Source: Candidatus Nanoarchaeia archaeon (lineage in GTDB: Archaea; Nanobdellota; Nanobdellia; Woesearchaeales; ARS49). Taken from it: a stretch of 64,000 nt of DNA. Position 1 is the stretch's first letter, and every line of letters starts with the position of its first letter. The stretch lies in the NCBI GenBank assembly GCA_041488275.1, contig JBGPOY010000002.1:80872-144871 (forward strand), written 5' to 3'. This document shows positions 2,438-42,620 of this stretch, piece after piece. The position numbers were made by a program, and so were the translations under genes. The notes beneath the pieces are model-generated. The model searched no databases. It saw only the letters and a list, made by a program, of their open reading frames with translations, and was not told the DNA's origin.

Positions 2438-2782
2438 ATGGGACGCAAGGACGAAGCACTCGCACAACAACAGCAACAGGAGGAGGAGATCCGCCGCACG
2501 CCGATGCCGCGCGGGACTCAGGTCTTGGGTGTGTGCGAACAACGCTTGGGCGGGAGTCACCTGCGCGTCCGCTGCCTCGACGGCAAAGTCCGCATCTGCC
2601 GCATTCCCGGACGCTTGAAGCGGTCCTTGTGGGTGCGCGAAAATGATATTCTGTTGATTGAGCCCTGGGAACTGGGCGGCGACGCGAAGGGCGATGTCGT
2701 GTTCAAGTACCGCCCGCTGCAGGCCGATGTCCTGCGCCGCAAGGGCTACCTGAAGGCCCTTGAGAACGCGAACGAATTCTGA
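2438..2782 (+). CDS. eif1a: Translation initiation factor aIF-1A
   Basis: QRLGGSHLRVRCLDGKVRICRIPGRLKRSLWVRENDILLIEPWE...KGDVVFKY. Confidence 0.95.
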   Translation: MGRKDEALAQQQQQEEEIRRTPMPRGTQVLGVCEQRLGGSHLRVRCLDGKVRICRIPGRLKRSLWVRENDILLIEPWELGGDAKGDVVFKYRPLQADVLRRKGYLKALENANEF

Positions 2783-2861
2783 TTTTGTCATCACTCGAGA
2801 ATAGAAATACTTATAAGACTCGTCCGTCCAAGAACACCCATTAACTTCGGGGGTTGTTCCT

Positions 2862-3326
2862 ATGTTTCGTGGATTCAGCGCATTTGTCGTTTCCGCCGTC
2901 ATCACGTTGATCGGCACTATCTGGTTGGAGCAGGAGCTCGTCAGGTATGTCGCGCCCGAAATGATCGGCATTCTCGTGCTCACGTTCGCGGCGATTGTCG
3001 CGGCGTTCGGCATCTGGAGCAACATGCGCTGGGGCCGCGTGCTTGCGGTCTTGTTCTTCGCGGCAGCTGCCGCGAACATCGCATTGATTGAGCGCTCGAT
3101 TCACGAAGCGTACATGGAATACCTGCTCCTGATGGCGTGGATTATCATCAGCTTCTGCTACAACGTGTTGCAGCTCGGCCACGACGCCTCTTCTTCGTTG
3201 GAAGCGTACAGCGCACACGTCGAGCCCGAAGTCACGCTCGACAACATCATGCCCACGCCCAAAATCGCGGCTCGCATTCGCAAGGTAAAGGCGGCGGGCA
3301 AAGCGAAGCGCAGCAAGAAGAAGTGA
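2862..3326 (+). CDS. Hypothetical membrane protein (about 4 TM, basic C-terminal tail)
   Basis: Four hydrophobic segments and a Lys-rich tail. Its stop overlaps the next GTG start. Confidence 0.6.
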   Translation: MFRGFSAFVVSAVITLIGTIWLEQELVRYVAPEMIGILVLTFAAIVAAFGIWSNMRWGRVLAVLFFAAAAANIALIERSIHEAYMEYLLLMAWIIISFCYNVLQLGHDASSSLEAYSAHVEPEVTLDNIMPTPKIAARIRKVKAAGKAKRSKKK

Positions 3327-3733
3327 TTTTTCCTTTATTGCTCGCGTTCGACGAAGAAGACCCGTTTCTCGAAGGCATTTGCAGCGTTTTCAACCGGCAG
3401 TATTCGAACGCCCGTCTCGAGTACGTGAAGACGAATGAGGGCGTGCGTGACCGATTCCGAAAAGAGCAGTATCGCGTCTTGTTCTACGACATCGGGCTCG
3501 ACAAAGACACGCATTATGGCTTTACCCAAGAGTTCAAGGAAGCGAATCCCGGAGTCTATCTCATCGGGTCAAGCATCGGCACGAGCATCTATCTTTATCG
3601 CGAAGTGCCTGAAGGTATTTTTCACGACCTCATGACGCTGAACGGGCTTATCGGTTTGCACCGGAGCGACACAACGCTGAGAACCGTGCTCGAGAGGGCG
3701 GAATTGAAGCTCGAACGGATTATTTCTCCTTAA
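3323..3733 (+). CDS. Stand-alone receiver (CheY-like) domain protein, atypical
   Basis: GTGA overlap with the previous stop. LLLAFDEED (beta1 acidic pocket), VLFYDIGL (phosphoacceptor-like Asp) and NPGVYLIGSS follow receiver-domain spacing. Confidence 0.55.
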   Translation: MIFPLLLAFDEEDPFLEGICSVFNRQYSNARLEYVKTNEGVRDRFRKEQYRVLFYDIGLDKDTHYGFTQEFKEANPGVYLIGSSIGTSIYLYREVPEGIFHDLMTLNGLIGLHRSDTTLRTVLERAELKLERIISP

Positions 3734-4160
3734 ACGACATCCAAATCAGCGCCACAATTCCTATCGTCAATGCGGAATCCGCGACGTTGAACGCGGGGAA
3801 GAAGCTGAAGTGGAGGAAGTCGGTCACACTCTGGAACGCGAGCCGGTCAATCAGGTTTCCTGCAGCTCCTCCGAGGATGAGCGCGGACGACCACGTCGTG
3901 TGGTGGTCTTCCAGGATTTTCTCGAGCGACGCGACGATGATGACGATGGCCGCCAACGCAACAAGCATGAAGATGAAATTCTGTCCTTGCAAAATGCCGA
4001 ACCCCGCGCCGGAGTTTTGGATGTGCGTGAACTCAAACACGCCGGGAATGACGGACACGGTTTTTCCGACTGAGAGCATGCGCGCGAACCATTTCGTGAG
4101 CTGGTCGAGAATAACGACGCCGACGGCGGTGCCCCAGAAGAGCGCGTGGCGGTTTACCAT
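3720..4160 (-). CDS. lspA: Lipoprotein signal peptidase (signal peptidase II, A8 family)
   Basis: All LspA motifs are present: LDQLTK, NSGAGFG, GAAGNLIDR, VTDF, FNVADS (both catalytic Asp), with 4 TM segments. Confidence 0.93.
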   Translation of the reverse strand: MVNRHALFWGTAVGVVILDQLTKWFARMLSVGKTVSVIPGVFEFTHIQNSGAGFGILQGQNFIFMLVALAAIVIIVASLEKILEDHHTTWSSALILGGAAGNLIDRLAFQSVTDFLHFSFFPAFNVADSALTIGIVALIWMSFKEK

Positions 4161-4444
4161 CGGACGCGCGGCATTTCCTTATTTTCCTGCAGCGTGCGCT
4201 CCAAGTGGTCAAGCCGTTGGACGATGTTGTCCAGCTGCGCCTTGAGCACGTCGAGTTTTGCGCCGATAAGCTCTAAGTCCTTTTCGCTCGTGCGCTGCGT
4301 GAGCGAAGACATATGCTGGAAGTTCGGGTCTTGTGACGGTCCGAGCGGCTCCATCGGTTGCAGTGAAGGAGTCGGCGTCGGTTCGAACTGCATCGGCGGC
4401 AGTTCCTGCTCTTCGTGCTTCCAGAACTTGAACTTTTCGAGCAT
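4154..4444 (-). CDS. Hypothetical protein, Pro-rich N-terminal half and coiled-coil C-terminal half
   Basis: Heptad pattern in KDLELIGAKLDVLKAQLDNIVQRLDHLERTL. Overlaps its neighbours by a few bases. Confidence 0.65.
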   Translation of the reverse strand: MLEKFKFWKHEEQELPPMQFEPTPTPSLQPMEPLGPSQDPNFQHMSSLTQRTSEKDLELIGAKLDVLKAQLDNIVQRLDHLERTLQENKEMPRVRW

Positions 4445-5154
4445 CAGCTTGCTCCGTCGACGTTGATGACGTAGCGGAGGACGGGATAGGGAAGGATGCG
4501 GATGGTGCGCGTCGTGATGCTCCCAGGGTACGCTCGGGCTGTTCCGGCGTTGATGCTCTTGACCAGCGCGTGCGCTTGCAGGAAATCGTTGACCATCGCC
4601 GCGAGCAAGAGTCCCTTGAACGCGTCGGCGGTCGTGTCGGGCAACTGGATTTCCTGCCCGATGGGAACGTGCGCGGCGGTGCGGACTTCCTTTGCGTAGT
4701 CCATGCGCGGGTCGGCTTCCGCCATCAATTCAAGCGCGCGCTTCGAGCTGAGATTGAGCCCGTCAATGTGGACGAACGGGATGGAATCGAACGCTCCGGG
4801 GTTGAGGATGAGCATGACATTGTTGCCGTCCAACGCCGTCTTGAAGTCGCCGGTGGAGTACGCTGCACGCAGTGCGCTCGTGTCGTTGATGACGCCGGGC
4901 ATCGGCGAGTTGTCGTGGACAAACGCGCCGAGCATCGTGCCCTTGTCGTCCAGCACGAAAAGCTTGGTGCCGTAGGCGAGCTGCTGTTCGAACTGCTGGG
5001 AGTCGTACGACAGCGCGAGGCTGCCGATGGCGAGCGCGAGTCCGAGAATCGTGAGGACGGTGTTCGCGATGCGGAAGACCTTGTAGTATGCCAGCGCCGA
5101 GAGTACAATCGAGATGGCGAAGAAAATGCCTGTTAGGACGTACGGGTTGACCAT
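4444..5154 (-). CDS. Hypothetical membrane-anchored protein (2 N-terminal TM)
   Basis: Two hydrophobic helices followed by a soluble domain. Coupled to the 4154-4444 ORF. Confidence 0.65.
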   Translation of the reverse strand: MVNPYVLTGIFFAISIVLSALAYYKVFRIANTVLTILGLALAIGSLALSYDSQQFEQQLAYGTKLFVLDDKGTMLGAFVHDNSPMPGVINDTSALRAAYSTGDFKTALDGNNVMLILNPGAFDSIPFVHIDGLNLSSKRALELMAEADPRMDYAKEVRTAAHVPIGQEIQLPDTTADAFKGLLLAAMVNDFLQAHALVKSINAGTARAYPGSITTRTIRILPYPVLRYVINVDGAS

Positions 5155-5196
5155 GCCTCTTTCAGCAGGGAAGTCGCAGAACGTAACTTATAAAGC

Positions 5197-6015
5197 TTAT
5201 GCCGGCTTCACGAGGCCGAGCAACTCGCGTTGTTTGCGCGCGTACCCGCCGAGTTTCTGGAAGCCGTAATGTTCTTCGAGGAAGGTGAGCGTGTCGTCGC
5301 TGGCGTTTTCGAGCAGCACGCAGAGGCGGTGTTCTTGGTCTTCGTTCAGCTGGTCGGCGCTGAGCAGCGCGTAGAGATTTTCAGGAACAACAGGAGTCGA
5401 CGGAGCGATGGGCGTTTGCGGCGCGGCAGGAGCTTGAACGCATTGCGCGACGGGCTTCGAAACTGCTTGGGGTGGCTGTGTAACAGGAGCGGTTGCGCGG
5501 GGCAGGTTCAGAATCGCGCGGCACGCGTCGCCGATATCGGCTGCGTACGGCGTCTGCGGTTTGTTTTTGTACGTCGTGTGGTGCGACGAGGGAACGTGGC
5601 GTTTGTTGTAATTGTGCTTGATGCAGATGGTGCTGATGCCGCGGACAATCGTCTGCGCGACCAGCTCCGGAACGGTCATGCCGTGCTGGACCGGAACGCG
5701 TCCGTCGAGTCCGGCGAAGAAATACGTCTTTTCCCAGTCCGTGAGCGCGTTGATGACGTCCGCAGGAACGAGACCGCTGCGCGTCATGCCGTAATAGATG
5801 GATTTCAGCGGTTCCTTGTTGAAGGTGCTGTAGAGCTTGTCGCTGAAGCCCGGTTCGAAAGGAATGCCGCGCTGATTGGTCTTCTTGACGAGCGCGTCGG
5901 TAAGGTCGCACTTGAGGTACTGCGTCGGACCGGCGTGCGTCTTGTTGACGATGCCATTCGCGAGCGTGCTCGGATGGGTTGCGAGTGCATTCAGGCGGGT
6001 CTCGAGCGATTCCAT
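5197..6015 (-). CDS. Hypothetical protein with a P/Q/A-rich linker
   Basis: Likely start MESLETRL at 6015, just after the stop of the 6017-6289 ORF. Globular N-terminal domain, low-complexity linker, small helical C-terminal domain. Confidence 0.6.
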   Translation of the reverse strand: MESLETRLNALATHPSTLANGIVNKTHAGPTQYLKCDLTDALVKKTNQRGIPFEPGFSDKLYSTFNKEPLKSIYYGMTRSGLVPADVINALTDWEKTYFFAGLDGRVPVQHGMTVPELVAQTIVRGISTICIKHNYNKRHVPSSHHTTYKNKPQTPYAADIGDACRAILNLPRATAPVTQPPQAVSKPVAQCVQAPAAPQTPIAPSTPVVPENLYALLSADQLNEDQEHRLCVLLENASDDTLTFLEEHYGFQKLGGYARKQRELLGLVKPA

Positions 6016-6016
6016 C

Positions 6017-6289
6017 TTAGTGTCCTCGGTATTCTGCTTGAGGAGTTTTCGTGGTTTCGCTGAGCTCGTAAGAAATGAATTCGAGTCCCGCGTACGCGGC
6101 AGCTGCCACGATGGCGGCGACGCTCCACGTGACCGGACTCTTGAGCACGGTCTTGATGAGTTCGTTGCGTTCACGGCGCTTGTTTTCTTCATAGCGCCAT
6201 TGGAGGTGCCGGTTCCATGCGGCCTGGAATTCCGCGCTCGGCTGAGCCGGAAGAATGGTGTCGGTTTCCTCGGAATGGATGTCGTACAT
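6017..6289 (-). CDS. Hypothetical single-TM protein
   Basis: Hydrophobic VTWSVAAIVAAAAYAGL segment. A TATA-like TATATAAA lies upstream at about 6313-6320. Confidence 0.55.
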   Translation of the reverse strand: MYDIHSEETDTILPAQPSAEFQAAWNRHLQWRYEENKRRERNELIKTVLKSPVTWSVAAIVAAAAYAGLEFISYELSETTKTPQAEYRGH

Positions 6290-6416
6290 ACGACGACAAA
6301 GCGCTTTTGTCCTATATAAATCTTTCTGTATTTACCACTTGGCGGTGACATTTAAATGGCGGGAAAGGACTGCGTCAGGACGTCGTTGGTAAAAGAAAAA
6401 TGTGAGAAAAAGGGAA

Positions 6417-6797
6417 CTAAATCAAAATGGCGCAGATGTGCCCTTCCTGACCCGGACGGTTCGTGATGCGCGCCTTGCCCTTGTCCGTTTCGATGACGGT
6501 TCCTTTCGTGAGGACGTTGCGTCGCACATAGTGGCGGTTCGCGGGGTTGCCGGTCACGATTTTGATGGTGGCCTTGACGTACTTCTTGGTCTTGGCGTCG
6601 AACAGGTTGCAGACGTTCGTGGAAGTCTGGTGCACTTTGGTGCCGCCGCCCTTGGTGCGCATCGTCTCGAGTTCACGGGCTGCAATCTTCGGGAGCGTCG
6701 GGTGATGGCCCAGTTCGTAGAGCTTCTTGCCGCGGTGCTCCTTCTTTCTGCCGCCGGAAGGCGTGCTGTCCTTGATTGCGCGTTGGATAACGACCAT
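6417..6797 (-). CDS. rps8e: 30S ribosomal protein S8e
   Basis: TPSGGRKK..RGKKLYELG, RTKGGGTK, NPANRHYVRRNVLTKGTVIET..GKARITNRPGQEG. Confidence 0.97.
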   Translation of the reverse strand: MVVIQRAIKDSTPSGGRKKEHRGKKLYELGHHPTLPKIAARELETMRTKGGGTKVHQTSTNVCNLFDAKTKKYVKATIKIVTGNPANRHYVRRNVLTKGTVIETDKGKARITNRPGQEGHICAILI

Positions 6798-6806
6798 GGT
6801 GAGACC

Positions 6807-7208
6807 TCACTTCGCCGCCGCGGGAGCGGCAGCCTTTTCTTCTTTCGGAGGCGCGAGCGGAGCTGCGCCTTCCTTCAACACTTTGAGATTGACTTGCGTG
6901 ATTTTCGGGTGAATCGTGTTGCCGCAGACGGTCTTGCGGTGCTTGATGCCGTTGGCGGTCTTCTTGAGACCGACGCCCTTGACGGCGAGAATTCGCTTTC
7001 TTTGGAAACCGGGGACGTCCCAGCGCATCGGGAAGCCGCAATAGTCGCTGCCGCCCGCAACTTCAAACTCGTAGCCGGGAAAACCAAAGTGGTCGCCCTT
7101 GACATGGTCCTTGATTTTCTTGCCTAAGAGTGCTTTGAATTCCGTGTCCGGAATTTCCTTCTGCACGCTGGTGCCGTTCTTCAGTCCAAAAATCAACTTT
7201 GCTGGCAT
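6807..7208 (-). CDS. rps6e: 30S ribosomal protein S6e
   Basis: LLGKKIKD..GYEFEVAGGSDYCGFPMRWDVPG...RKTVCGNTI..ITQVNLKV. Confidence 0.96.
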   Translation of the reverse strand: MPAKLIFGLKNGTSVQKEIPDTEFKALLGKKIKDHVKGDHFGFPGYEFEVAGGSDYCGFPMRWDVPGFQRKRILAVKGVGLKKTANGIKHRKTVCGNTIHPKITQVNLKVLKEGAAPLAPPKEEKAAAPAAAK

Positions 7209-7288
7209 GGTAGTCCCCCGAGCCGCATTGTTGCAGCGACTCAGCTTAGATACTCAGAATTCCCTTCAGGGGGTTTATAAATGTTCTG

Positions 7289-7639
7289 CTAATTGACGAG
7301 CTTCAGGCTTCCTGTAACGGCGTCGATGCGCTTCTCGTCGTGCGGGCCGATGGCCATGCATGTAATCGTGCCGGGGTCGACGTGCGTGTGTCCTGCATCC
7401 GTCACGACCGCGGCGATGAGTCCGGATTTTCTTGCTTTCTGTTCGTAGTCGAGCAGTTCGCGCAAGTCGGCGACTTTCAGAACTGATTTTTTCATTCCCT
7501 GCTGGCGCCAAATCATCACGTCCTCGGCGTCGGAGAGCGTCACCGCATCGACAGCAGCGTGGGCGACTTGCGCGGACATCTTGCCTTTGGAGAGCTTGAG
7601 GTCGTCGCGCACCAGAATGACCTGCTTGTAGTCTGCCAT
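7289..7639 (-). CDS. pth2: Peptidyl-tRNA hydrolase Pth2 (archaeal/eukaryotic type)
   Basis: YKQVILVRDDLKLSKGKMSAQVAHAAV, DAGHT and TCMAIGP. Confidence 0.96.
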   Translation of the reverse strand: MADYKQVILVRDDLKLSKGKMSAQVAHAAVDAVTLSDAEDVMIWRQQGMKKSVLKVADLRELLDYEQKARKSGLIAAVVTDAGHTHVDPGTITCMAIGPHDEKRIDAVTGSLKLVN

Positions 7640-7641
7640 GC

Positions 7642-8682
7642 TTACGGAGTGGGAGTTGCGGGTTTTAAAGGTTGCTTCAGGTGATGGTCAATCGCGGCGA
7701 CGAGTTCTTTCACGCCGGTTTCTTTTTCTGCGGAGACGAGCATCAGGTTTTGGGTGTGTTCGCTCGCCTGCTCGATTTGCTGCGTCGTGGCGGCGTCGGC
7801 TTTGTTCACGACGACAATGACGGGCACTTGCAATGTTTTCGCGACTTCCTTGAGCAGGTTTTTCTGGGCGTCCAAGGGGTAGCCGCAGAATTCGGTCGGG
7901 TCCAGCACGAAGAGGACGAGTTTCGCGAGATACTTCAGTGCGAGCGCGGCTTGCTTTTCGATGTTGTTGCGTTTGACGATGGGGCGGTCGAGGATGCCAG
8001 GAGTATCGACGAACTGCCACTTGGTCGTGCCGTGCGGGCGGTAGCCGAGCATCATTTGTTTGGTGGTGAAGGGATAGTCCGCGATTTCGGGAGCGCTGCC
8101 CGTGAGCGCGCGCAGGAGCGTGGACTTGCCGACGTTCGGGTAGCCCGCGATGACGATGGTGGGAATGGATGTTTTCAGCGTGGGCAGGACTTTCAGTGCT
8201 TTACGCGCGTCGTCGAGAATGACGAAGTCATTTTTGAGTTGCTTGACGATGGAGGAGATTCTGCCGTAGAACGACCGCTTGTGCCGCAGGAGAGCCGATT
8301 CGTCTGCGCTGTTGCGGAGCTTCTGGTTGTACTCGCGGAAAATCGTGTCGATGCGCTCGACGCCCCAGTTGATGCCGCCCAAGCTCTGCTTGACCTGTCC
8401 GACGTCGACGACGCACTTGGCGAGTTCGCGGTAGAACGGGTCGACGCGGTCCATGCTCGGGTATTGCGTGAGGATGAGCATGAAGTGGCGGTTCAAGGCG
8501 TTGCGGACGGCGTTGATGGAGTCGAGTTCCTTGCGTTGGAGGCGTTGGAACGAGTTGCCTTTCAGCGTTTTCATCGTCTCGGCGGCGTGTTCCTTTGCCT
8601 GATGGAACGCGATGTCGAGGTACGTCTGCGCGGTTTCGACCTTGCCGAGCTTTCCGAAGTTCATATCCGTCTGGAGCACCAT
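7642..8682 (-). CDS. NOG1 family GTP-binding protein
   Basis: N-terminal helical NOG1 domain (DPFYREL). G1 AGYPNVGKST, switch YPFTTK, G3 DTPGILDR, G4 NKAD. Start at 8682 or 8664. Confidence 0.92.
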   Translation of the reverse strand: MVLQTDMNFGKLGKVETAQTYLDIAFHQAKEHAAETMKTLKGNSFQRLQRKELDSINAVRNALNRHFMLILTQYPSMDRVDPFYRELAKCVVDVGQVKQSLGGINWGVERIDTIFREYNQKLRNSADESALLRHKRSFYGRISSIVKQLKNDFVILDDARKALKVLPTLKTSIPTIVIAGYPNVGKSTLLRALTGSAPEIADYPFTTKQMMLGYRPHGTTKWQFVDTPGILDRPIVKRNNIEKQAALALKYLAKLVLFVLDPTEFCGYPLDAQKNLLKEVAKTLQVPVIVVVNKADAATTQQIEQASEHTQNLMLVSAEKETGVKELVAAIDHHLKQPLKPATPTP

Positions 8683-33778: not shown

Positions 33779-33868
33779 AACCATAGAACGCAATCGAGCA
33801 GTTATAAACATTTCGCGGGCGCCGATTCACCACAACCTTTTTATCCCCTGCTTCTGCAGTCAAGCCTT

Positions 33869-35776
33869 ATGTCCAAGATTACGCTGACGTATCCTGACGG
33901 CAGCAAAAAAGAGTTTGAAAAAGGCGTCACCGGAATGTACGTCGCCGAAAGCATCGGCAAGCGCCTCGCGAGCGACGCGCTCTCCATTAAAGTAGACGAC
34001 CGCGTCCAATCCCTCACGCTCCCGATAGAAGCCAACTCAAAAATCAAGATTCTCACGTGGACGGACAAGGAAGGCAAGGAAACCTTCTGGCACTCCACCG
34101 CGCACGTGCTCGCCCACGCAATCAGCAGATTGTACCCGAACGCGAAGAACACCATCGGTCCGCCGGTTGAGGACGGATTTTTCTACGATTTCGACGACCT
34201 CAAAATCACGCCCGAAGACTTCCCGAAAATCGAAGCGGAAATGAAAAAGATTGTCGAAGCGAATTTCCCCATCGAAAAGCACGACTGGACGCTCGCCGAC
34301 ATCAAGAAGCATCAAGGCAACAACCCGTACAAGCTCCAGTTAGCACAAGAATTCACCGAGCGCGGCTGGAAACTCACGGCGTATAAGCAAGGAGAATTCA
34401 TTGACCTCTGCGAAGGCCCGCACGTTCCCAGCACAGGAGTCATCAAGGCGTTCAAACTCATCAAGCTCGCCGCCGCGTACTGGAAAGGCGACCAAAAGAA
34501 CAAGCAGCTGACGCGCGTCTACGGCATCGGATTCCCGTCGCAAAAAGACCTGACTGCGTGGACCACGCTTCAGGAAGAAGTCGCGAAGCGGGACCATAGA
34601 AAAATCGGCAAGGAGCTCGGCTTGTTTATGTTCCACGAATGGTCTCCCGGAAGCCCGTTCCTTCTGCCGCGCGGCACCGTCCTGTTCAACGAACTGCAAA
34701 ACTTTGTGCGCGCAGAATACGTCAAGCGCGGCTACACCGAAGTCATCACGCCGCAGCTCTACAACAAAGCGCTGTGGGAAACGTCAGGACACTGGCAGCA
34801 TTACCGCGACAACATGTTCACGATGACCATCGACGGCGAGGATTTCTCGCTCAAACCGATGAACTGTCCGAGCCACTGCCTGATTTACCGGGAACACGCG
34901 CACTCGTACCGCGACCTCCCGTTGAGAATCGCGGACTTCTGCTTCCTGCACCGCAACGAAGTCAGAGGAGCATTGGGCGGCATGACGCGCGTGCGCAAGT
35001 TCAGCCAGGACGACGCGCACATCTTCTGCCGCGTCGACCAGATTCAGGACGAAATTCATCAACTGCTCGACTTTGTCCGGTTCATTTACACGGACACGTT
35101 CAAGATGGAAGTCTCGGCAAGTCTGAGCACGAAGCCGCAGGATTCATTGGGCGACGCGCAGACGTGGCAGATGGCCGAAACCGCGCTTTCAGAAGCACTC
35201 AACAAGCAAAAAATCAAGTTCACCGTCAAAGCAGGCGAAGGCGCGTTCTACGGTCCGAAAATTGATTTCGAAGTCAAGGACGCGCTCGGAAGACTGTGGC
35301 AGCTCGCCACGATTCAGCTCGACTTCCAGATGCCGCAGCGCTTCAAGCTCGAATACGCAGACAAGGATAACACGCTGAAGACTCCTGTGATGATTCACCG
35401 CGCGATTCTCGGCTCGCTCGAGCGCTTCATGGGCGTGCTCGTCGAGCATTACGCGGGCAAGTTCCCGGTCTGGCTCGCGCCCGTCCAAGCAAGAATCCTC
35501 CCGCTCTCGGACAAGTTCAACGGCTACGCAGGAGAAGTCGGATTGCACTTGCGCAACCACAACATCCGCATCGAAGTCGACACGAGCGTGGAAACGCTGA
35601 ACAAGAAAGTCCGCAACGCCCAGCTCGACCAAATCCCGTACATCCTCGTCGTCGGCGAAAAAGAAATGGCTGCGAAATCCGTCGCAGTGCGCACCCGCGA
35701 CGGCAAAGTCCACGGCGAAGTCGCCACCGGCAAGTTTATTGACGCCTTACTCCGCGAGATTGCGGAGAAGAAGTAG
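33869..35776 (+). CDS. thrS: Threonine--tRNA ligase, bacterial type (TGS + editing + catalytic + anticodon-binding domains)
   Basis: ITLTYPDGS TGS start, HSTAHVLAHA and DLCEGPHV editing motifs, RDHRKIG, PMNCPSHC, LHRNE, FYGPKID and MIHRAILGSLERF. Confidence 0.98.
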   Translation: MSKITLTYPDGSKKEFEKGVTGMYVAESIGKRLASDALSIKVDDRVQSLTLPIEANSKIKILTWTDKEGKETFWHSTAHVLAHAISRLYPNAKNTIGPPVEDGFFYDFDDLKITPEDFPKIEAEMKKIVEANFPIEKHDWTLADIKKHQGNNPYKLQLAQEFTERGWKLTAYKQGEFIDLCEGPHVPSTGVIKAFKLIKLAAAYWKGDQKNKQLTRVYGIGFPSQKDLTAWTTLQEEVAKRDHRKIGKELGLFMFHEWSPGSPFLLPRGTVLFNELQNFVRAEYVKRGYTEVITPQLYNKALWETSGHWQHYRDNMFTMTIDGEDFSLKPMNCPSHCLIYREHAHSYRDLPLRIADFCFLHRNEVRGALGGMTRVRKFSQDDAHIFCRVDQIQDEIHQLLDFVRFIYTDTFKMEVSASLSTKPQDSLGDAQTWQMAETALSEALNKQKIKFTVKAGEGAFYGPKIDFEVKDALGRLWQLATIQLDFQMPQRFKLEYADKDNTLKTPVMIHRAILGSLERFMGVLVEHYAGKFPVWLAPVQARILPLSDKFNGYAGEVGLHLRNHNIRIEVDTSVETLNKKVRNAQLDQIPYILVVGEKEMAAKSVAVRTRDGKVHGEVATGKFIDALLREIAEKK

Positions 35777-36949
35777 TTTCTCGCCGCGATACTCCGCGCG
35801 TGCATACGCAACCACGTTTCTTTTCACCATCTCTGCAACATCCGCGTACGATTTTCCTTTCAGTTGCCGCGCGAACTCCCCGTCGTTGAGCTCCCAGGGA
35901 AGTTTGACGTTCGTTTCGTATTTGCGGCGGTGCATGCGGACTGCGTCGGTCAATTCTTCCGTTGTCGGCATCTCCATTCTGATTATTTTGCTCAGCCGCG
36001 GCGGGCGCAGCAGCGCTGCATCGACGTTCTTCTCCAAGTTCGTCGCCGCAATGATTATCCTGTCTTTCCGCGTTCCCACGCCGTCCAACTCGGCGCACAT
36101 CGTTCCGACCAGTGACGCGGTCGCCTCGTGCGTGTCCATCGCCCGTGAACGTCCGAGCGCGTCAATCTCGTCGAGAAACACGACGCCCGAAACGTCCAGT
36201 TTCCGTTTCAGATTCTTCGCGCTCGTGCCGTACATGCACGACAATACGCCAGGAATCCGGATTTCGTGGAACGGCAAGTCGACTTCATTGGCGAACGCCT
36301 TGACCAAATACGTTTTGCCGCAGCCCGGAGGTCCGGCGAGCAGCACCGACGCCTCCAACGGGTTCAGGTTATACTTCGCGAACGTCTCTGTGTGCCGAAG
36401 GTCCTCGGCAATCGCCATCAGCTCTCGCTTTGCGGGATTGTTTCCCGCGACGTCGGAAAACCGCACGCGTTCCGTCATCTTTCGCGGCGCCATTTCATTT
36501 CCCTGCAGCGCGCAGAAATAGCGTTTCGTCAGCTGAATCAGTTCGTGCGCGTCGCTCGCGTGCCGCACGCCTTCGATGTACGATGACACGGCGCTTTGCA
36601 CGACCAAGCGGCTCCGGATGTCCGGATCGGTCGCGTACACATCCGTTTTGAGCGGAGCGAACGCGTTTTCCTCGTCGAGCAGACTATCATCCGCCTGCGG
36701 GCACGCGCGCAGTAGCGTTTCGATGCCGGCGTTCGCTCCCGTGCGCGCGGCGCGCAACTCTTCGGCGGCAAGTGCTTTGCGGTCCTCGCCGATAAGCTTG
36801 CGCGCGCACAAATAGGCGCCCGTGAACGCGTGCCACGCCTCGTCGACAATCGCGGCCGCGTCTGATTTTCTCAGCCGGGCGTCCAACGCCTCGCGAATCT
36901 GTCCCGACGCGTGCACTGCTTCCAGCAAAAGCGCGCCGTCACGCGCCAT
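35747..36949 (-). CDS. Classic-clade AAA ATPase, single module with helical N-terminal domain
   Basis: VRFSDVAG..AKREL, Walker A GPPGCGKT, pore loop MYG, Walker B VFLDEID, SRH AATN..VDAALLRPPR. No TM and no protease domain. Confidence 0.9.
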   Translation of the reverse strand: MARDGALLLEAVHASGQIREALDARLRKSDAAAIVDEAWHAFTGAYLCARKLIGEDRKALAAEELRAARTGANAGIETLLRACPQADDSLLDEENAFAPLKTDVYATDPDIRSRLVVQSAVSSYIEGVRHASDAHELIQLTKRYFCALQGNEMAPRKMTERVRFSDVAGNNPAKRELMAIAEDLRHTETFAKYNLNPLEASVLLAGPPGCGKTYLVKAFANEVDLPFHEIRIPGVLSCMYGTSAKNLKRKLDVSGVVFLDEIDALGRSRAMDTHEATASLVGTMCAELDGVGTRKDRIIIAATNLEKNVDAALLRPPRLSKIIRMEMPTTEELTDAVRMHRRKYETNVKLPWELNDGEFARQLKGKSYADVAEMVKRNVVAYARAEYRGEKLLLLRNLAE

Positions 36950-38117
36950 ACGCTTCTCGTCGGGCGCGGTCGATGATTTCGCGCACCGAGTTCCGCACTT
37001 CGCCGTTCACGTTCTCGAGCGCGTTCGACAACTCTTCGCACCGCGCCTGGTCTTTCGTCGAAAACGTGTAGCCGGGCGCGATGTCGAGCTTCAGCAGGTC
37101 GACGTTTGCTTCGTCCTGTCCCGTCGTGAATTCGGCGATGCCCTGCCCGAACCCTTGGTACTTCTTGACCAGTTCCAAGCCGCGCAGCGGCACGTCGATA
37201 TCAACAATGTCCGTGTGCCGGACGCGGAAGTCTCTCAGGAATTCCTGGTCGCACTTCAACCGCGTGTCGAGCTGGTCGAGCACATGAGCGGCCATCCGCA
37301 TGCTCGCGTGGTTGCGCTTCGCGTACTGCAAAAATACCCAGGTGTGGCGGATTTTTCCTGCTAGTTCGTCGTAGCGTTTCTGCGTCGGCGCCAAGTCCTT
37401 CGCGACGCACGCGCCAATGTCCCTGCCTGCGTTGTATTCCTCGCGCGTGACTCCCTGCTTGTGACGCTCGCGCTCCAAATCCAGCTGTTTCTTCGTCGCG
37501 AGCAGGTACTTCTCGCACGACTCGAACTCGTCGCCGAACTTCAGTAAATTTTCGTAGAGTTTGTTCCTGTCATCTTCGAGCGCGTATTCTTTCGCGCGCG
37601 CCTTCCGCAGTTCACCCGCGTTTTCGTCAATCGCGCTTTGGTACTCGCCCACAATCTGGTCGATTCTCCGGAACGTGAGCGTCTTGCGCTTCTCCTCGAC
37701 AAACGTCACGGCAAAATCAGTCCTGCGACCGACGCTCTCCACAATTTTGTCCGCGACGGAATACGCTGCACGCTGCAGTTTCTCAGGCAGCGTCAAATAC
37801 GCGCTCAAGTCGTTCGCCGTTGGATGCGCGCCGGAGTCGTGCTTCAGCACGAGCCCGCTCAGCGTTACGTAAAGATCGTCGACTTTTGATTTGTAGCTGC
37901 TCAGCTTGCTCTGCGTCACTTGCGTTTTCTCGACGCTGACGGCGTTGTGGTTTTGGTCGACGTACGCCTGCCGGTCTTCGGGGCTCTTGGAATTCCACAG
38001 CCCGATGGCGGCGATACGGCTGCTGACGTCGCCTTTTGCTCGCGCGACCGCGACAAAGTCGTCCATCGCGCGGTCGTCCACGCGGGAATCGATGGATTCG
38101 TGTTGTCCGTTGTTCAT
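36939..38117 (-). CDS. Long coiled-coil protein, possibly distant TelA/KlaA-like
   Basis: Start MNNGQH at 38117 (ATGA-coupled). All-helical; IDQIVGEY...NKLYENLLKFGDEFESCEKYLLATKKQL recalls the TelA core. Confidence 0.6.
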   Translation of the reverse strand: MNNGQHESIDSRVDDRAMDDFVAVARAKGDVSSRIAAIGLWNSKSPEDRQAYVDQNHNAVSVEKTQVTQSKLSSYKSKVDDLYVTLSGLVLKHDSGAHPTANDLSAYLTLPEKLQRAAYSVADKIVESVGRRTDFAVTFVEEKRKTLTFRRIDQIVGEYQSAIDENAGELRKARAKEYALEDDRNKLYENLLKFGDEFESCEKYLLATKKQLDLERERHKQGVTREEYNAGRDIGACVAKDLAPTQKRYDELAGKIRHTWVFLQYAKRNHASMRMAAHVLDQLDTRLKCDQEFLRDFRVRHTDIVDIDVPLRGLELVKKYQGFGQGIAEFTTGQDEANVDLLKLDIAPGYTFSTKDQARCEELSNALENVNGEVRNSVREIIDRARREAYGA

Positions 38118-38347
38118 TTTCGTTCCCTCAGGTAGTCGCGTTTTTCCTTGACGCGGTCTTCCAGCCATTCCAATCCGCGCGTCGTGTAGTGCAGCGTGTC
38201 CTGCGTGAGTTTCAGCCCTGTTTCGGCGGCTCGCTCGAGCGAGCTCGGCGGCTGTTTCTTTGTTTCACAGCTCGCGAGCGTGTACAGCCCCGCGACCGTG
38301 ATGCCGCCGTACACGGCAATGTTCTTGACCAGTTTGCAGATGCCCAT
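38114..38347 (-). CDS. Small membrane protein or lipoprotein
   Basis: Hydrophobic N-terminus with YTLAS|C lipobox-like motif, followed by an amphipathic helix. Confidence 0.6.
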   Translation of the reverse strand: MGICKLVKNIAVYGGITVAGLYTLASCETKKQPPSSLERAAETGLKLTQDTLHYTTRGLEWLEDRVKEKRDYLRERK

Positions 38348-38525
38348 GGTATAATCACCAATCGTTAACGAGTGACTGCCTTTTAGGTGGGTTGCGCCTC
38401 AGAAGACGGAAGAATTGCGGCCAGCGCCGTAAAACAGGCTCTCCGGCAGTATGGTCGTTCGTCATTCTTGGTTGGAGTAAGACTTATAAACCATAAGACC
38501 TGTTCTTCGGGAAAAGGGTGATTGA

Positions 38526-39233
38526 TTGGGAGACGAAACACTGATTCCGGCGTTCGTGCAGGCCTATGCGGTCGGGCACGTCGCGATGGAGTCCGGCGAT
38601 AAGGGCGCGGCAGTCAAGGCATATCAGGACTTGCTGGCGAGCTACAAGCTCATCACGACCAGTTCTTTAGGGAAACCGCACAAGGACCTCGCGTACCAGC
38701 AAGTGCAGTCGCTCTACCACGACATTCAATCAATGCCTTCGGCAACCGTGTTGAAGAATGCCTCTCCCGTCAAGACTGCTTCAACGGCTCCCGTGGAATC
38801 ATCATACGCGTCAACGCAATCCTCCGCTGCCAAAGACTCCGCTCCTCGCGATTCCTTCCTTTCCAAACTTTCTCCGCGCGATTACGTCACGCTGAGCTTC
38901 TTCGCAGTATTAATCGTGCTCGTCCTGTTTGTCAAGCCCGAGTTTCTCGGTTTTGCCGCAGGCACGCCGAACGCCGCTCCGAGATGGTACGCGCCGACGA
39001 CGCTCACGGCAACCGCAGGACAGGCGTTTGTCTTTGATTTGTCGACGGCGTTCCGCGACCCCGACGGCGAGACGCTCGTCTATCTCGCGTCCGGAAGTCC
39101 GGGACTGCAAGTCACGATTCGCGGCAGCGTCGTTTCCGTGCTTCCGTCCGCGGCGGGCAATTACGTTCTGACGATGATGGCGAGCGACCTGTCGCACACG
39201 ACAAAAGTGCCGGTCGCGCTCCAGGTCTCCTGA
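38526..39233 (+). CDS. Type II membrane protein: helical (MIT/TPR-like) N-domain, S/T/A linker, TM, cadherin-like Ig domain
   Basis: ESGDKGAAVKAYQDLL helical repeat, TM VTLSFFAVLIVLVLFV, NAAP...AFRDPDGETLVY...MMASD. Confidence 0.7.
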   Translation: MGDETLIPAFVQAYAVGHVAMESGDKGAAVKAYQDLLASYKLITTSSLGKPHKDLAYQQVQSLYHDIQSMPSATVLKNASPVKTASTAPVESSYASTQSSAAKDSAPRDSFLSKLSPRDYVTLSFFAVLIVLVLFVKPEFLGFAAGTPNAAPRWYAPTTLTATAGQAFVFDLSTAFRDPDGETLVYLASGSPGLQVTIRGSVVSVLPSAAGNYVLTMMASDLSHTTKVPVALQVS

Positions 39234-39239
39234 GGCCCG

Positions 39240-42200
39240 ATGGCCAAGACCTCGTTTATTCTCACAACAATTCTCGTAGTAGTCCTTGCGCTTGCGTTCA
39301 CGGTTTCGCCATCCATTACGGGTAACGTCGCAGGCGCGCAAAAGCAACGCGCACCGCGCGAGACTGCTCCTCCCGCGTCGTTTCCCGCCATCGACCCCGC
39401 GATTGACGCCGCATTGAACGCAAACGGCAAGGCAAAAGTCATCATCACGCTCAAACCCGACACGACCGCAATCGCCGTCGAGGGGCTCACGCCGCGCCAG
39501 CAAAAAATTCATTCAGTCCAGCAAAAACTGCTCGCGCGCATCACCAACGCGAGCGGCATCGCCGACACAGAAACCGAAAACGTCCGTACGCTCACCAACG
39601 CTCCGGTCATCACCGCAACCTTGGGCAGGCGCGCCATCGCGATTCTCACGTCAAGCCCCGAAATTCAATCAGTCCAGCTCGCGCGCACGCTCAGCATCGA
39701 CCTCACCACGACCGTGAACGTCATCAAAGCCAGCAACGTCTGGGGCGAAGTCGTCAACGGCGTCAACGTCACGGGCGCCGGGCAGAGCATCTGCGTCATC
39801 GACACCGGAATCGACCCGAGCCACGCCACGTTTGCGGGAAAAATCGTTGACCAGCATTGCTACTGCGACAACAACTGCTGCCAAGGACTGAACGAGTCAA
39901 CCAACGCCACCGACGACAACAGCCACGGCACGCACGTCGCCAGCACGGCAATGGGCAACGGCGGCGGCGTCATCGGCGTCGCAAAGGGCGCGAGCGTCGT
40001 CGCGATGAAAGTCTGCGACAGCGGCGGCAGCTGCTCCGACTCCGACATCGCGCTCGCCATCGACTACTGCATCAACAAGTCATCCCAATACAACATCAGC
40101 GTCATTACGATGAGCCTGAGCGACGGCGGCGCGTACGCGACGCAGGGCAGCTGTCCGACAGGAATGGACGCGCTGATTTCTTCCGCAATCTCAAACAACA
40201 TCTTCGTTACTGCGGCGTCCGGTAACCAGTTCAGCACGACCGGCATCGGCTACCCCTCGTGTTCCCCGAACGCGACGAGCGTGGGCGCAACGACGCACGA
40301 CGGCAGCAGCATTGAAACGTCGTACAGCAACCGCGGGCCGCTGCTCGACGTCGTTGCACCGGGAACGAGCGTCGTCGCCGCAAACCTCGGCGGCGGAACC
40401 ATTGCAAAAACAGGAACGAGCATGGCAACGCCGCACGTCGCGGGCGTCGGCGCATTGCTCGCCCAAAATGCGCGCCTCCACAACCAGACCTTTGACCCGC
40501 AGTTGGCGGAACAGATTTTGAAAGAGACGGCACAGTCCTCATCAAGTTTCAGACTCGTCAACGTCCAAGCCGCGTTGCTGCGTTTCAATTCTAACTACAC
40601 CTACAACAGCACCAACAATTCGCTCGCGAACCCGAGCGTCGGGCGCGTGTTCTTCCGCGGAACGCAGAACGTCAGCCGATTGGCGGACTGCTTCAATCTC
40701 ACGGCGAACAACATCACGCTGCGCGACACGAACGCGAACTGCACGCAGTTCAACAACTCCGCGACGGTTCGGCTTGAAAACCTGCCGTTCCACGACGCCA
40801 AACCGTTCCTCAACGGCGCGCCGTGCTCCTCGCTCGAATGCCAGAACAAAACCGTCAACAACGGCGCGCTTACCTTTGATGTCACGCACTTCTCGAGTTA
40901 TACTGCCGGCACGGCCGCGAATCTCTCGATTTCCGACGACACGGACAACGAGAGCCGATTCATCGGCGACCAAGTCACCTTCCGCGCGAACTTCAGCAAC
41001 TCCACGGGACCGGTCAACACGACCGCGGGCGCGTGCCTTATCGCCATCAACAGCACCGGCGCTTACGGCGCGTTCCAAAACATGACCTCGACGAACGGCG
41101 CGTACCGGTACAACCAATCGTTCGCTTCAGTATTCACCGGCACGTACAACGTGACGTGCACGAGTTTCAACGAAACGCTTTCTACTGTCGACGGCGTCAA
41201 CCTGACAACGGACGCGCTCGCTCCCGTCGTCACGCTCCTCGCGCCGGCAAGCACCGTGACCACAAGCAGATTCGTCCGCTTCACGTACAACGTCAGCGAC
41301 AACAGCACGCTCCAGAATTGCGCGCTCTACCTCAACAGCACGTTGAACTCGACCAACACGAATGTCGTGAGGAACATCAATCAAACTTTCAACGTCACGC
41401 TGATGAACGGGAACTATTCGTGGAACGTCACCTGCACGGACGCAAGCGGCAACATCGGTTCAACCGCGACAACCGTGCTTGTCAACGTCACGAATTTCGC
41501 ACCGTACCTTCTCACGCCGATTGCCAACAAAACGTTCACGGAAGACACGAACACAACCGCCAATCTCTCGGCGGCGTTCAACGACAGCAACGGCGACCCG
41601 CTCACGTTCACGTCGGTCGCGAGCCTGAACATCAGCGTCGCCATCGACAACACGACCGGCGTCGCGACGCTTTTGCCGCTCGCGAACTGGTCGGGCTCAG
41701 GCAGCGTCGTCTTCACCGCGATTGACGTCGTCGGCGCGGGCAACACGTCAAACAATGTCTCCATCAACGTCACGTTCGTCAATGACGCTCCTTCATTGCA
41801 ATCCTCCCTCCCGAGCCAGAGCTGGTCGAGCGCGAGCAACGACAACGCGTTCGACCTCGACACCTATTTCACGGACTCGGACAACGCGACGCTCCTCTTT
41901 ACGAGCAACGGCACGAGCAGCATCACTGTCAGCATCGACCCGTCGACGCACGCCGTGAACTTCACGCAGTCCTCAGGATTCACGGGCACGGAACTCGTGA
42001 CGTTTACCGCCAGCGACGGCAGTTTGAGCACGCTCAGCAACCTCGTCACGCTCACAGTTTCATCGTCGGGCGGCGGCGGGGGCGGAGGAGGCGGAGGCGG
42101 TGGCGGCGGAGGCAGCAGCTGCGTCGACACGTGCACCGTTTCGGGAACGCACCTCGGCTGCACCGCGGCAGGGCAAGATATCCAGTGCGGCTACGGTTCA

Positions 42201-42620
42201 ACCTTGTGCCTGCATCCCATCACGCTCGACTGCGCCGCGGGAACCACCTGTCAGTCAGACGGCTGCGCCAAGAAAATCTGCTCGGAAGAATGGTTCTGCG
42301 ACGAGTGGACTGCGTGCGCGGACGGAAAGCAGACGCGCGACTGCACCGAAGCCAACGCGTGCGGCACCGAACTCGCGAAACCCGCGATGACGCGCAACTG
42401 CACAATCGAACCGAAAACCTACGAAATCCAAACGCCCGCTGCAACCGACCAACCGATTGAAGTCATCAACACAACGTGCGTCGGAAACGCCTGCGCGAAC
42501 GTCACGAGCTCCGTTGTCGGGCCGGGAGCAATCGAACTGAAGGCGGTCATCATCGGACTCATCACCTTGCTGATGGGTTCCTACCTGTTTTTCCGCTTTC
42601 ACCGCTTCAGCAAGCACTAA
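39240..42620 (+). CDS. Secreted, membrane-anchored S8 (subtilisin-like) serine protease with Ig/cadherin-like repeats, poly-Gly linker and Cys-rich domain
   Basis: Catalytic triad VIDTG, HGTHVA and GTSMATPHVAG. Propeptide, NDSNGD and TDSDN repeats, 15-Gly run, WFCDEWTAC..QTRDC, and a C-terminal TM. Confidence 0.93.
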   Translation: MAKTSFILTTILVVVLALAFTVSPSITGNVAGAQKQRAPRETAPPASFPAIDPAIDAALNANGKAKVIITLKPDTTAIAVEGLTPRQQKIHSVQQKLLARITNASGIADTETENVRTLTNAPVITATLGRRAIAILTSSPEIQSVQLARTLSIDLTTTVNVIKASNVWGEVVNGVNVTGAGQSICVIDTGIDPSHATFAGKIVDQHCYCDNNCCQGLNESTNATDDNSHGTHVASTAMGNGGGVIGVAKGASVVAMKVCDSGGSCSDSDIALAIDYCINKSSQYNISVITMSLSDGGAYATQGSCPTGMDALISSAISNNIFVTAASGNQFSTTGIGYPSCSPNATSVGATTHDGSSIETSYSNRGPLLDVVAPGTSVVAANLGGGTIAKTGTSMATPHVAGVGALLAQNARLHNQTFDPQLAEQILKETAQSSSSFRLVNVQAALLRFNSNYTYNSTNNSLANPSVGRVFFRGTQNVSRLADCFNLTANNITLRDTNANCTQFNNSATVRLENLPFHDAKPFLNGAPCSSLECQNKTVNNGALTFDVTHFSSYTAGTAANLSISDDTDNESRFIGDQVTFRANFSNSTGPVNTTAGACLIAINSTGAYGAFQNMTSTNGAYRYNQSFASVFTGTYNVTCTSFNETLSTVDGVNLTTDALAPVVTLLAPASTVTTSRFVRFTYNVSDNSTLQNCALYLNSTLNSTNTNVVRNINQTFNVTLMNGNYSWNVTCTDASGNIGSTATTVLVNVTNFAPYLLTPIANKTFTEDTNTTANLSAAFNDSNGDPLTFTSVASLNISVAIDNTTGVATLLPLANWSGSGSVVFTAIDVVGAGNTSNNVSINVTFVNDAPSLQSSLPSQSWSSASNDNAFDLDTYFTDSDNATLLFTSNGTSSITVSIDPSTHAVNFTQSSGFTGTELVTFTASDGSLSTLSNLVTLTVSSSGGGGGGGGGGGGGGGSSCVDTCTVSGTHLGCTAAGQDIQCGYGSTLCLHPITLDCAAGTTCQSDGCAKKICSEEWFCDEWTACADGKQTRDCTEANACGTELAKPAMTRNCTIEPKTYEIQTPAATDQPIEVINTTCVGNACANVTSSVVGPGAIELKAVIIGLITLLMGSYLFFRFHRFSKH
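42069..42113 (+). repeat. (GGN)15 poly-glycine codon run
   Basis: ggc ggc ggc ggg ggc gga gga ggc gga ggc ggt ggc ggc gga ggc, in frame in the protease. Confidence 0.9.

Follow-up and report, generated by a model that had tools for sequence, protein, structure and literature searches.

In the bacterial Psp system, the small membrane proteins PspB and PspC, the helical effector PspA and the AAA+ protein PspF are brought together under a dedicated operator, and PspA binds and controls the AAA+ protein. The same three kinds of part are encoded by a single operon in a Candidatus Nanoarchaeia archaeon (GenBank assembly GCA_041488275.1), on the stretch of 64,000 nucleotides (nt) of contig JBGPOY010000002.1 that was analysed here as a whole and is called the window below. 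PspF is a sigma54 activator and belongs to a different AAA+ clade; to our knowledge archaea have no sigma54, and the long-helix protein of the archaeal operon, although comparable in kind, has no sequence or fold match to PspA. If the function proposed below is right, the operon would also resemble Vps4/CdvC with ESCRT-III/CdvB, being made up of a single-ring classic AAA ATPase with a helical N-terminal domain (N-domain) and, encoded beside it, a helical-hairpin protein as the target of disassembly. It differs from that system in that the partner carries no Snf7 or PspA signature and the ATPase is dispensable in sister lineages. The window carries an orphan pair of genes joined by an AAA ATPase of a new, very narrow subfamily, and the parts are as follows.

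38114-38347, minus strand: small gene, 77 amino acids (aa), encoding a putative lipoprotein or single-pass membrane protein

36939-38117, minus strand: middle gene, 392 aa, encoding a soluble protein of an orphan family that is predicted to be all-helical

35747-36949, minus strand: AAA gene, 400 aa

36482-36949, minus strand: N-domain of the AAA protein (residues 1-156), a five-helix domain without detectable relatives

35747-36481, minus strand: AAA module (residues 157-400), of the classic clade, with Walker A and B, sensor 1, two Arg fingers and a CMYG pore loop

An earlier note on this DNA had described three co-oriented, overlap-coupled genes on the minus strand and had taken them for a module of membrane anchor, TelA-like polymer and Vps4-type disassembling ATPase. 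The operon is real and undescribed; the TelA core, the MIT-like domain, the Vps4 type and the fixed three-part module all failed direct tests.

The three open reading frames are confirmed, and so is their coupling. The stop codon of the small gene and the start codon of the middle gene overlap as ATGA. The reading frame of the middle gene is itself open up to 38168, and its start is placed at the ATG at 38117 (MNNG) because a Shine-Dalgarno-like motif (GAGGG or GGAGG) precedes this ATG in the window and in its relatives and because the database gene call is of 392 aa. The middle and AAA genes overlap by 11 nt, identically in four other close lineages, and the start codon of the AAA gene, with its own Shine-Dalgarno-like motif, sits within the final codons of the middle gene. 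At its far end the AAA gene converges on the gene for threonyl-tRNA synthetase (ThrRS), the 3' ends of the two overlapping by 30 nt. All five of the close lineages, which are those that bear the AAA gene (the window, L001/2, L003-6/8, L009 and L010/L007; L numbers denote loci), retain the gene order small-middle-AAA together with the 11-nt overlap. When each of the three genes is compared with those of the four other lineages, changes at the third codon position predominate over those at positions 1 and 2 in every pairwise comparison. The counts at positions 1, 2 and 3 are 9, 8 and 35 for the small gene (L001 and L003), 93, 59 and 214 for the middle gene (window and L001) and 107, 72 and 194 for the AAA gene. 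Judged from this substitution pattern, all three genes are coding and under purifying selection. The overlaps, the kept order and the codon-position bias together bear out the claim of an undescribed, conserved and translationally coupled operon. The parts list of the earlier note also stands as a prediction from the protein sequences, namely a small protein targeted to the membrane, a partner made of long helices and a soluble ATPase of the classic AAA clade whose catalytic residues are intact.

The trio does not extend beyond this group of lineages. Some of the remote loci were found by scanning contigs with an alignment of the small protein, and in five sister lineages the small and middle genes, overlapping by 4-8 nt, lie between a divergent rpS8e gene and a convergent ThrRS gene with no AAA gene at the locus. 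ThrRS directly follows the pair in L011, L012, L018 and L019, whereas in L015 the AAA slot is occupied by an unrelated gene for a helical protein of 235 aa (7202-7909; P0131, no family match). The contig of L014 ends at the middle gene. A tblastn search found no AAA-like sequence in the AAA-less loci. The linkage of all three genes that the earlier note expected in other genomes therefore holds, but within one clade only, and its fixed trio of anchor, polymer and ATPase gives way to a pair with an extra gene. Because the remote lineages keep the pair without the AAA gene, the ancestral unit is taken to be small plus middle, with the AAA gene as a clade-specific addition; the third position of the operon seems to be exchangeable. 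The operon is a lineage-specific one of Woesearchaeota-type DPANN archaea (Candidatus Woesearchaeota archaeon is the title of two remote-lineage records). A fixed housekeeping locus, rpS8e/ThrRS, carries the pair, which is vertically inherited and lies outside islands; because DPANN genomes are tiny, a conserved and regulated pair at such a locus is likely to matter for cell biology.

The rates at which the proteins diverge also separate lineages with and without the AAA gene. The window and L001, both of the AAA clade, share 80% identity in ThrRS, 62% in the small protein and 73% in the middle protein. For the window and the AAA-less L019 (middle gene at 6240-7409) the corresponding values are 78%, 53% and 24%. 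By ThrRS these two loci are about equally far from the window, yet their middle proteins stand at 73% and 24% identity to that of the window. A second contrast is found at a ThrRS identity of 74%: the middle protein is 58% identical between the window and L003, inside the AAA clade, and only 28% identical between L012 and L018, both of them AAA-less, with the small protein at 62% in each comparison. By these alignments the middle protein is fast-evolving, with a step-like change where the AAA gene appears and tighter constraint where it is present. Such a jump in divergence would be compatible with a middle protein that has co-adapted to the ATPase.

The ATPase itself has a single AAA domain by Pfam (PF00004, residues 202-326, E 5.4e-27, 95 bits against a cut-off of 21) and no other significant match. 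Its Walker A (GPPGCGKT), Walker B (VVFLDEID) and sensor-1 (ATN) motifs and the segment LLRPPRLS, which contains both Arg fingers, are invariant among the orthologues, and the motifs align residue by residue to both p97 D1 and p97 D2, as expected of a classic AAA ATPase. The pore loop, SCMYGTS, is a variant (C-M-Y-G) that aligns with TMWFGES of p97 D2. Intact Walker motifs, an aromatic pore loop (MYG), Arg fingers and the lack of transmembrane and protease domains had all been reported from the sequence before, and all are upheld; the highest 19-residue hydropathy is 0.89, and Pfam finds the AAA domain only.

NCBIfam models of described families match the ATPase far below their cut-offs: FtsH at 122 bits (cut-off 600), CDC48 at 119 bits (cut-off 803; the match covers its D2 part only), PAN at 99 bits, IteA at 80 bits (cut-off 510) and CdvC at 62.7 bits (cut-off 650). 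Against solved structures, the AAA module scores 102 bits with p97 D2, 102 bits with FtsH and 71 bits with p97 D1. The proposal of the earlier note was at odds with a grouping of the ATPase with FtsH or Cdc48 fragments, and on this point it is half contradicted, since the AAA module does group with the Cdc48/FtsH type. Among 5.8 billion proteins, whole-length relatives of the ATPase form only three other clusters, at 63-69% identity; the next-best matches after these orthologues are of Cdc48 type, at most 35% identical and limited to the AAA module.

The closest described family is thus that of Cdc48, p97 and VAT. The D2 module of p97 is the best-scoring solved relative, at about 32-35% identity, with an identical Walker A, the same arrangement of Walker B, sensor 1 and double Arg finger, and a pore loop in register (MYG against WFG). 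The ATPase described here differs from Cdc48 and VAT in that it consists of one AAA module within 400 aa and possesses neither a D1 module nor a double-psi-barrel N-domain. Its lid scores below the Pfam AAA_lid_3 model, and its N-domain would be, as modelled, a novel helical bundle. It differs from FtsH in having no transmembrane segment and no Peptidase_M41 match. The Vps4/CdvC-type ATPase with an MIT-like N-domain proposed by the earlier note finds no counterpart in these results. The CdvC score falls far below those of FtsH and CDC48, Vps4_C is absent from the best 25 of the 31 Pfam matches to the ATPase, and the AlphaFold2 model of the N-domain, which has five helices (predicted local distance difference test, pLDDT, 74; predicted TM-score, pTM, 0.73), retrieved no relative from the PDB with Foldseek (best E 1.4), with no MIT entry among the top 50. 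By these comparisons the ATPase stands for a small subfamily of its own, new within the classic AAA clade, and belongs to none of the Vps4/CdvC, Cdc48, FtsH and PAN families.

BLAST matches to two-module ATPases (P0110 and P0113) hinted that residues 69-155 of the N-domain might be a decayed lid of a Cdc48 D1 module. The idea was rejected, as hhalign gave P 0.15 over 22 columns, which is not significant. On viral contigs there is no specific relative of either the AAA protein or the middle protein.

In the middle protein, which has about 320-400 aa across the lineages, a helical hairpin (residues about 144-220 and 232-300) that varies at its tip precedes a Gly-rich block at 303-355 and a C-terminal helix with the ending Tyr-x-Gly, and both the block and this last helix are conserved. 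As a coiled-coil hairpin would, both long helices show a strong hydrophobic period of 3.5 residues, at a level reached by none of 2000 shuffles for residues 144-220 and by 6 of 2000 for residues 232-300. The AlphaFold2 model, built on a shallow family alignment, is all-helical, with pLDDT 62 and two very long helices joined by a loop that bears insertions and deletions. Neither a signal peptide nor a transmembrane segment was found in the protein (highest 19-residue hydropathy 0.82). Nothing significant was found for it in Pfam, NCBIfam, PHROGs, PADLOC or the sequences of the PDB, the entries that do appear being at chance level (BrxF of PADLOC at E 0.0072 and three PHROG matches at E 0.028-0.14). 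A word-based search gave four close relatives at 57-72% identity, and an exhaustive search with a hidden Markov model (HMM) among 1.84 billion representatives gave only five real clusters in the family.

The resemblance of part of this protein to the TelA/KlaA core, claimed by the earlier note, does not stand up. Both are all-helical soluble proteins of similar length, and a phage 'tellurite resistance protein' model does occur among the weak fold matches, at noise level (BFVD rank 48, E 0.19, TM-score 0.32). However, the Pfam TelA model (PF05816) fails to match the window protein with the threshold at E<=1, and at E<=0.1 it also misses four remote relatives; taken as a family none of the five members tested has an HMM match at E<=1. 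The likeness to ESCRT-III and PspA finds no support either, for the fold as far as so weak a model can show: PspA_IM30 and Snf7 of Pfam match none of five family members, and PspA, Vipp1 and ESCRT-III are absent from the top 50 Foldseek matches in the PDB, all of which have TM-scores of at most 0.35 and were obtained with the low-confidence model. Fold searches of the PDB and BFVD with this model return weak and non-specific long-helix matches (TM-score 0.16-0.35), among them the AhlB, SmhB and AhlC toxins, the arms of SMC and Rad50, chemoreceptors and F-BAR. The identities of pore-forming toxin, SMC and TelA that such matches could suggest were rejected, the resemblance being that of any long helix.

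One further candidate relative of the middle protein, a eukaryotic protein of 4294 aa with collagen-VI-like multi-vWA repeats (P0011), was rejected as a chance match inflated by repetition. It matches a 45-residue stretch (the 316-360 block, within middle residues 198-369) seven times, with a total E of 2e-4, and its pairwise alignments to the middle protein cover a whole vWA domain at about 21% identity.

The small protein, of 77-81 aa across the lineages, has no family match in Pfam, NCBIfam, PHROGs or PADLOC. Its N-terminus is basic (MGICKLVKN, with K5 and K8 making up the n-region) and is followed by an h-region (residues 10-25), an LASC lipobox and, after Cys27, about 50 aa of charged predicted helices. 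The lipobox occurs as LASC, MASC, LSSC or FTSC ([LMF][AST]SC), and its Ser26 and Cys27 are invariant in eight lineages, as are M1, G2, Y13, G14, L21 and Y22. The protein fits the published definition of a lipobox, and predicted lipoproteins are reported to be prevalent in DPANN archaea (PMC12462473). The window also encodes a homologue of the peptidase that such a protein would need.

3723-4151, minus strand: Peptidase_A8 (signal peptidase II/LspA-like)

Peptidase_A8 genes are likewise found near the locus in L012 and L014, the window copy being 57% identical to that of L012. With n-region, h-region, lipobox and a gene resembling that of signal peptidase II all present, the small protein qualifies as a predicted lipobox lipoprotein, its lipidation and cleavage being predictions too. 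The hydrophobic segment is nevertheless more conserved than the 'mature' part of about 50 residues, which is unusual for a cleaved signal, and this segment may stay in place as a membrane helix instead of being removed. That a DPANN archaeon should encode a lipoprotein signal peptidase of bacterial type is noteworthy in its own right, given the work on AliA and AliB.

Upstream of the small gene lie two short elements that recur from lineage to lineage. In the window they are the following.

38407-38419: degenerate copy, CGGAAGAATTGCG, of the palindrome CGGAA-N3-TTCCG, with one mismatch, 60-72 nt upstream of the small gene

38377-38389, minus strand: box CACCTAAAAGGCA, about 38 nt upstream of the small-gene ATG, a candidate TATA-like promoter element

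Elsewhere the palindrome is exact and is present in one or two copies, 21 nt apart, at -60 to -90 in all lineages except L012 and L015. It often takes the longer form CCGGAA-N3-TTCCGG followed by a run of T, and in all fetched loci exact copies are found only upstream of the small gene. It is accompanied at about -38 by a box of the form CACCTAAAA(A/G)GCA; written as (C)ACCTAAAA(A/G)GCA, the box is found 26-38 nt upstream of the ATG in nine of ten lineages, and its promoter role is putative. The coordinates of these upstream elements are 38377-38419 in the window, 5681-5714 in L001, 1448-1481 in L010, 5608-5672 in L014 and 5930-5942 in L019. One-mismatch copies of the palindrome number 4 in the window against 4.4 expected, so the window copy taken alone is at chance level, and counts of the short motifs TTCCGGAA and CTTCCGS in the window were uninformative. 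The palindrome belongs to the small-gene operon because it is kept whether the divergent neighbour is rpS8e or a surface-protein cluster. Its conservation suggests that it is probably the operator of a dedicated transcription factor. The sequencing runs comprise only a DNA metagenome of the source sediment, with no RNA.

What might such an operon do? Our preferred reading, which we hold tentatively and at somewhat less than even confidence, is that the pair gives rise to a membrane-associated coiled-coil assembly that, in the AAA clade, is remodelled or disassembled by a dedicated unfoldase; most of this we infer. The coiled-coil protein would assemble at the cytoplasmic face of the membrane, either together with the small membrane protein or on a signal from it. 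In one clade a single-module classic AAA gene was added at the junction of the pair with the ThrRS gene that converges on it. The AAA hexamer would recognise the coiled-coil protein through its N-domain, and its pore loops would unfold or disassemble the protein by threading; alternatively, the coiled-coil protein may serve the AAA protein as an adaptor. On either account the ATPase would be an optional recycling or remodelling factor and not a core part. This reading is supported by the conserved overlaps and gene order, the purifying selection, the intact ATPase motifs, the invariant lipobox Cys, the signal peptidase II-like gene and the restriction of the N-domain to three orthologue clusters. 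The conservation of the pair with its palindrome and box supports it as well, as does the way in which the jump and the constraint in the middle protein track the presence of the AAA gene.

Several considerations pull the other way. Physical interaction, membrane binding and polymerisation are all steps that we infer, and the model of the middle protein, at pLDDT 62, is a weak one. The argument from rates uses a single marker, ThrRS. Five lineages have the pair without the AAA gene, and the insertion in L015 may mean that the slot simply tolerates insertions; that an AAA orthologue lies elsewhere in the AAA-less genomes is made unlikely by the protein database search alone. A further difficulty is posed by how the small protein is oriented in the membrane. 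Were it a cleaved lipoprotein, its mature part would be extracellular and, as the other two proteins have no export signals, a simple role as their anchor would fail. The counts of Lys and Arg are similar on both flanks of its hydrophobic segment, so that either topology fits.

Some of the same facts favour an AAA protein that is functionally independent, a stripped-down general unfoldase or proteostasis factor resembling Cdc48 D2, which occupies a permissive slot and is merely co-transcribed with a pair of unrelated function. The five lineages with the pair alone, the different gene in the same slot in L015 and the generic nature of the module, seen in its scores of 122, 119 and 99 bits with FtsH, CDC48 and PAN, are all in keeping with this. 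We consider it unlikely, though deserving of real weight, because every one of the five AAA lineages keeps the 11-nt overlap with its internal Shine-Dalgarno-like motif, the N-domain is found only in the operon context and the changes in the middle protein, both the jump and the tighter constraint, coincide with the presence of the AAA gene. The reading offered by the earlier note was more specific: a module for the remodelling or repair of membranes that would be a homologue or analogue of TelA, PspA or ESCRT-III, with a lipoprotein anchor and a Vps4/CdvC-type disassemblase carrying an MIT-like N-domain. The operon does offer similar parts in its small membrane protein, its protein with a long helical hairpin and its AAA protein, and the hairpin has heptad periodicity. 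Given the Pfam and Foldseek results for the middle protein, the N-domain without an MIT match, the low CdvC score and the absence of the AAA gene from half of the lineages, we judge it quite improbable.

The speed at which the middle protein evolves relative to ThrRS, and the modular third gene, might instead be those of a conflict or defence system in which a coiled-coil sensor is coupled to an IetA-like effector AAA protein. The PADLOC models for IetA match the AAA protein at 6e-28, and the NCBIfam model IteA gives its 80 bits. The IetA score, 96 bits, is however that of the generic Pfam AAA domain (95 bits), and the IteA score compares with a cut-off of 510. In no lineage is there an adjacent gene for a cytoplasmic IetS-type protease, and in L001 and L003 no subtilase gene separates the trio from the surface cluster. 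The operon thus differs from IetAS in having no IetS protease partner and does not qualify as one. Its locus, moreover, is a fixed, vertically inherited housekeeping locus and not an island, with no viral or mobile-element link, and a role in defence seems to us to have little likelihood. Least probable by far is that the middle protein is an alpha-pore-forming effector of the ClyA family, related to AhlB, SmhB and XaxA/B, which the AAA protein would handle before export. AhlB, SmhB and AhlC are the best Foldseek matches in the PDB (E 4e-3 to 0.1), but they come with TM-scores of 0.16-0.34 and root-mean-square deviations of 14-32 Å from a low-confidence model, and SMC arms and chemoreceptors score equally well. 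The protein has no hydrophobic head or tongue, as its highest hydropathy of 0.82 indicates, and neither a signal peptide nor secretion genes are found.

To return to the preferred reading, the generic idea of an AAA protein that remodels a helical partner at a membrane is plausible. If the AAA protein does act on the coiled-coil protein, it would join Vps4, with its partner ESCRT-III, as another AAA unfoldase that serves a single helical partner and that arose independently, and the sister lineages would offer a natural comparison with and without the ATPase. A bolder version, which we regard as distinctly unlikely, is that the operon is a Woesearchaeota-specific membrane-associated cytoskeletal or envelope-stress system with its own operator and an exchangeable third part, in which the disassembly ATPase of one clade was derived from a Cdc48-type module independently of Vps4, so that filament and AAA recycler would have come together by convergence. 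For now the operon is of use mainly as a clearly bounded subject for predicting the structures of complexes and for biochemistry in heterologous hosts.

The surroundings of the operon vary between lineages. In deep relatives the small gene has an eIF-1A ... Peptidase_A8 ... rpS8e block as its immediate neighbour. In the window this block (2438-6797) lies about 30 kb away from the ThrRS-AAA-middle-small block (33866-38347), which is inverted relative to it, and from this distance and inversion the locus of the window is taken to be rearranged. In close relatives the trio directly adjoins a pair of surface-protein genes of 645 aa and about 2100 aa, sizes that match the second surface module of the window. 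L001 and L003 are without three features of the window, the transmembrane/Ig gene (38526-39233), the subtilase gene (39240-42620) and the first surface module. As the adjacency to surface genes is missing in the deeper lineages, it probably reflects synteny and not function. Two records of metagenome-assembled genomes, L016 (CAZJXP010000001.1) and L018 (CAYHVU010000014.1), are titled 'uncultured Methanosarcinales archaeon' and yet carry rpS8e, the pair and a ThrRS that is 68-72% identical to that of the window; the Methanosarcinales label on them is probably wrong.

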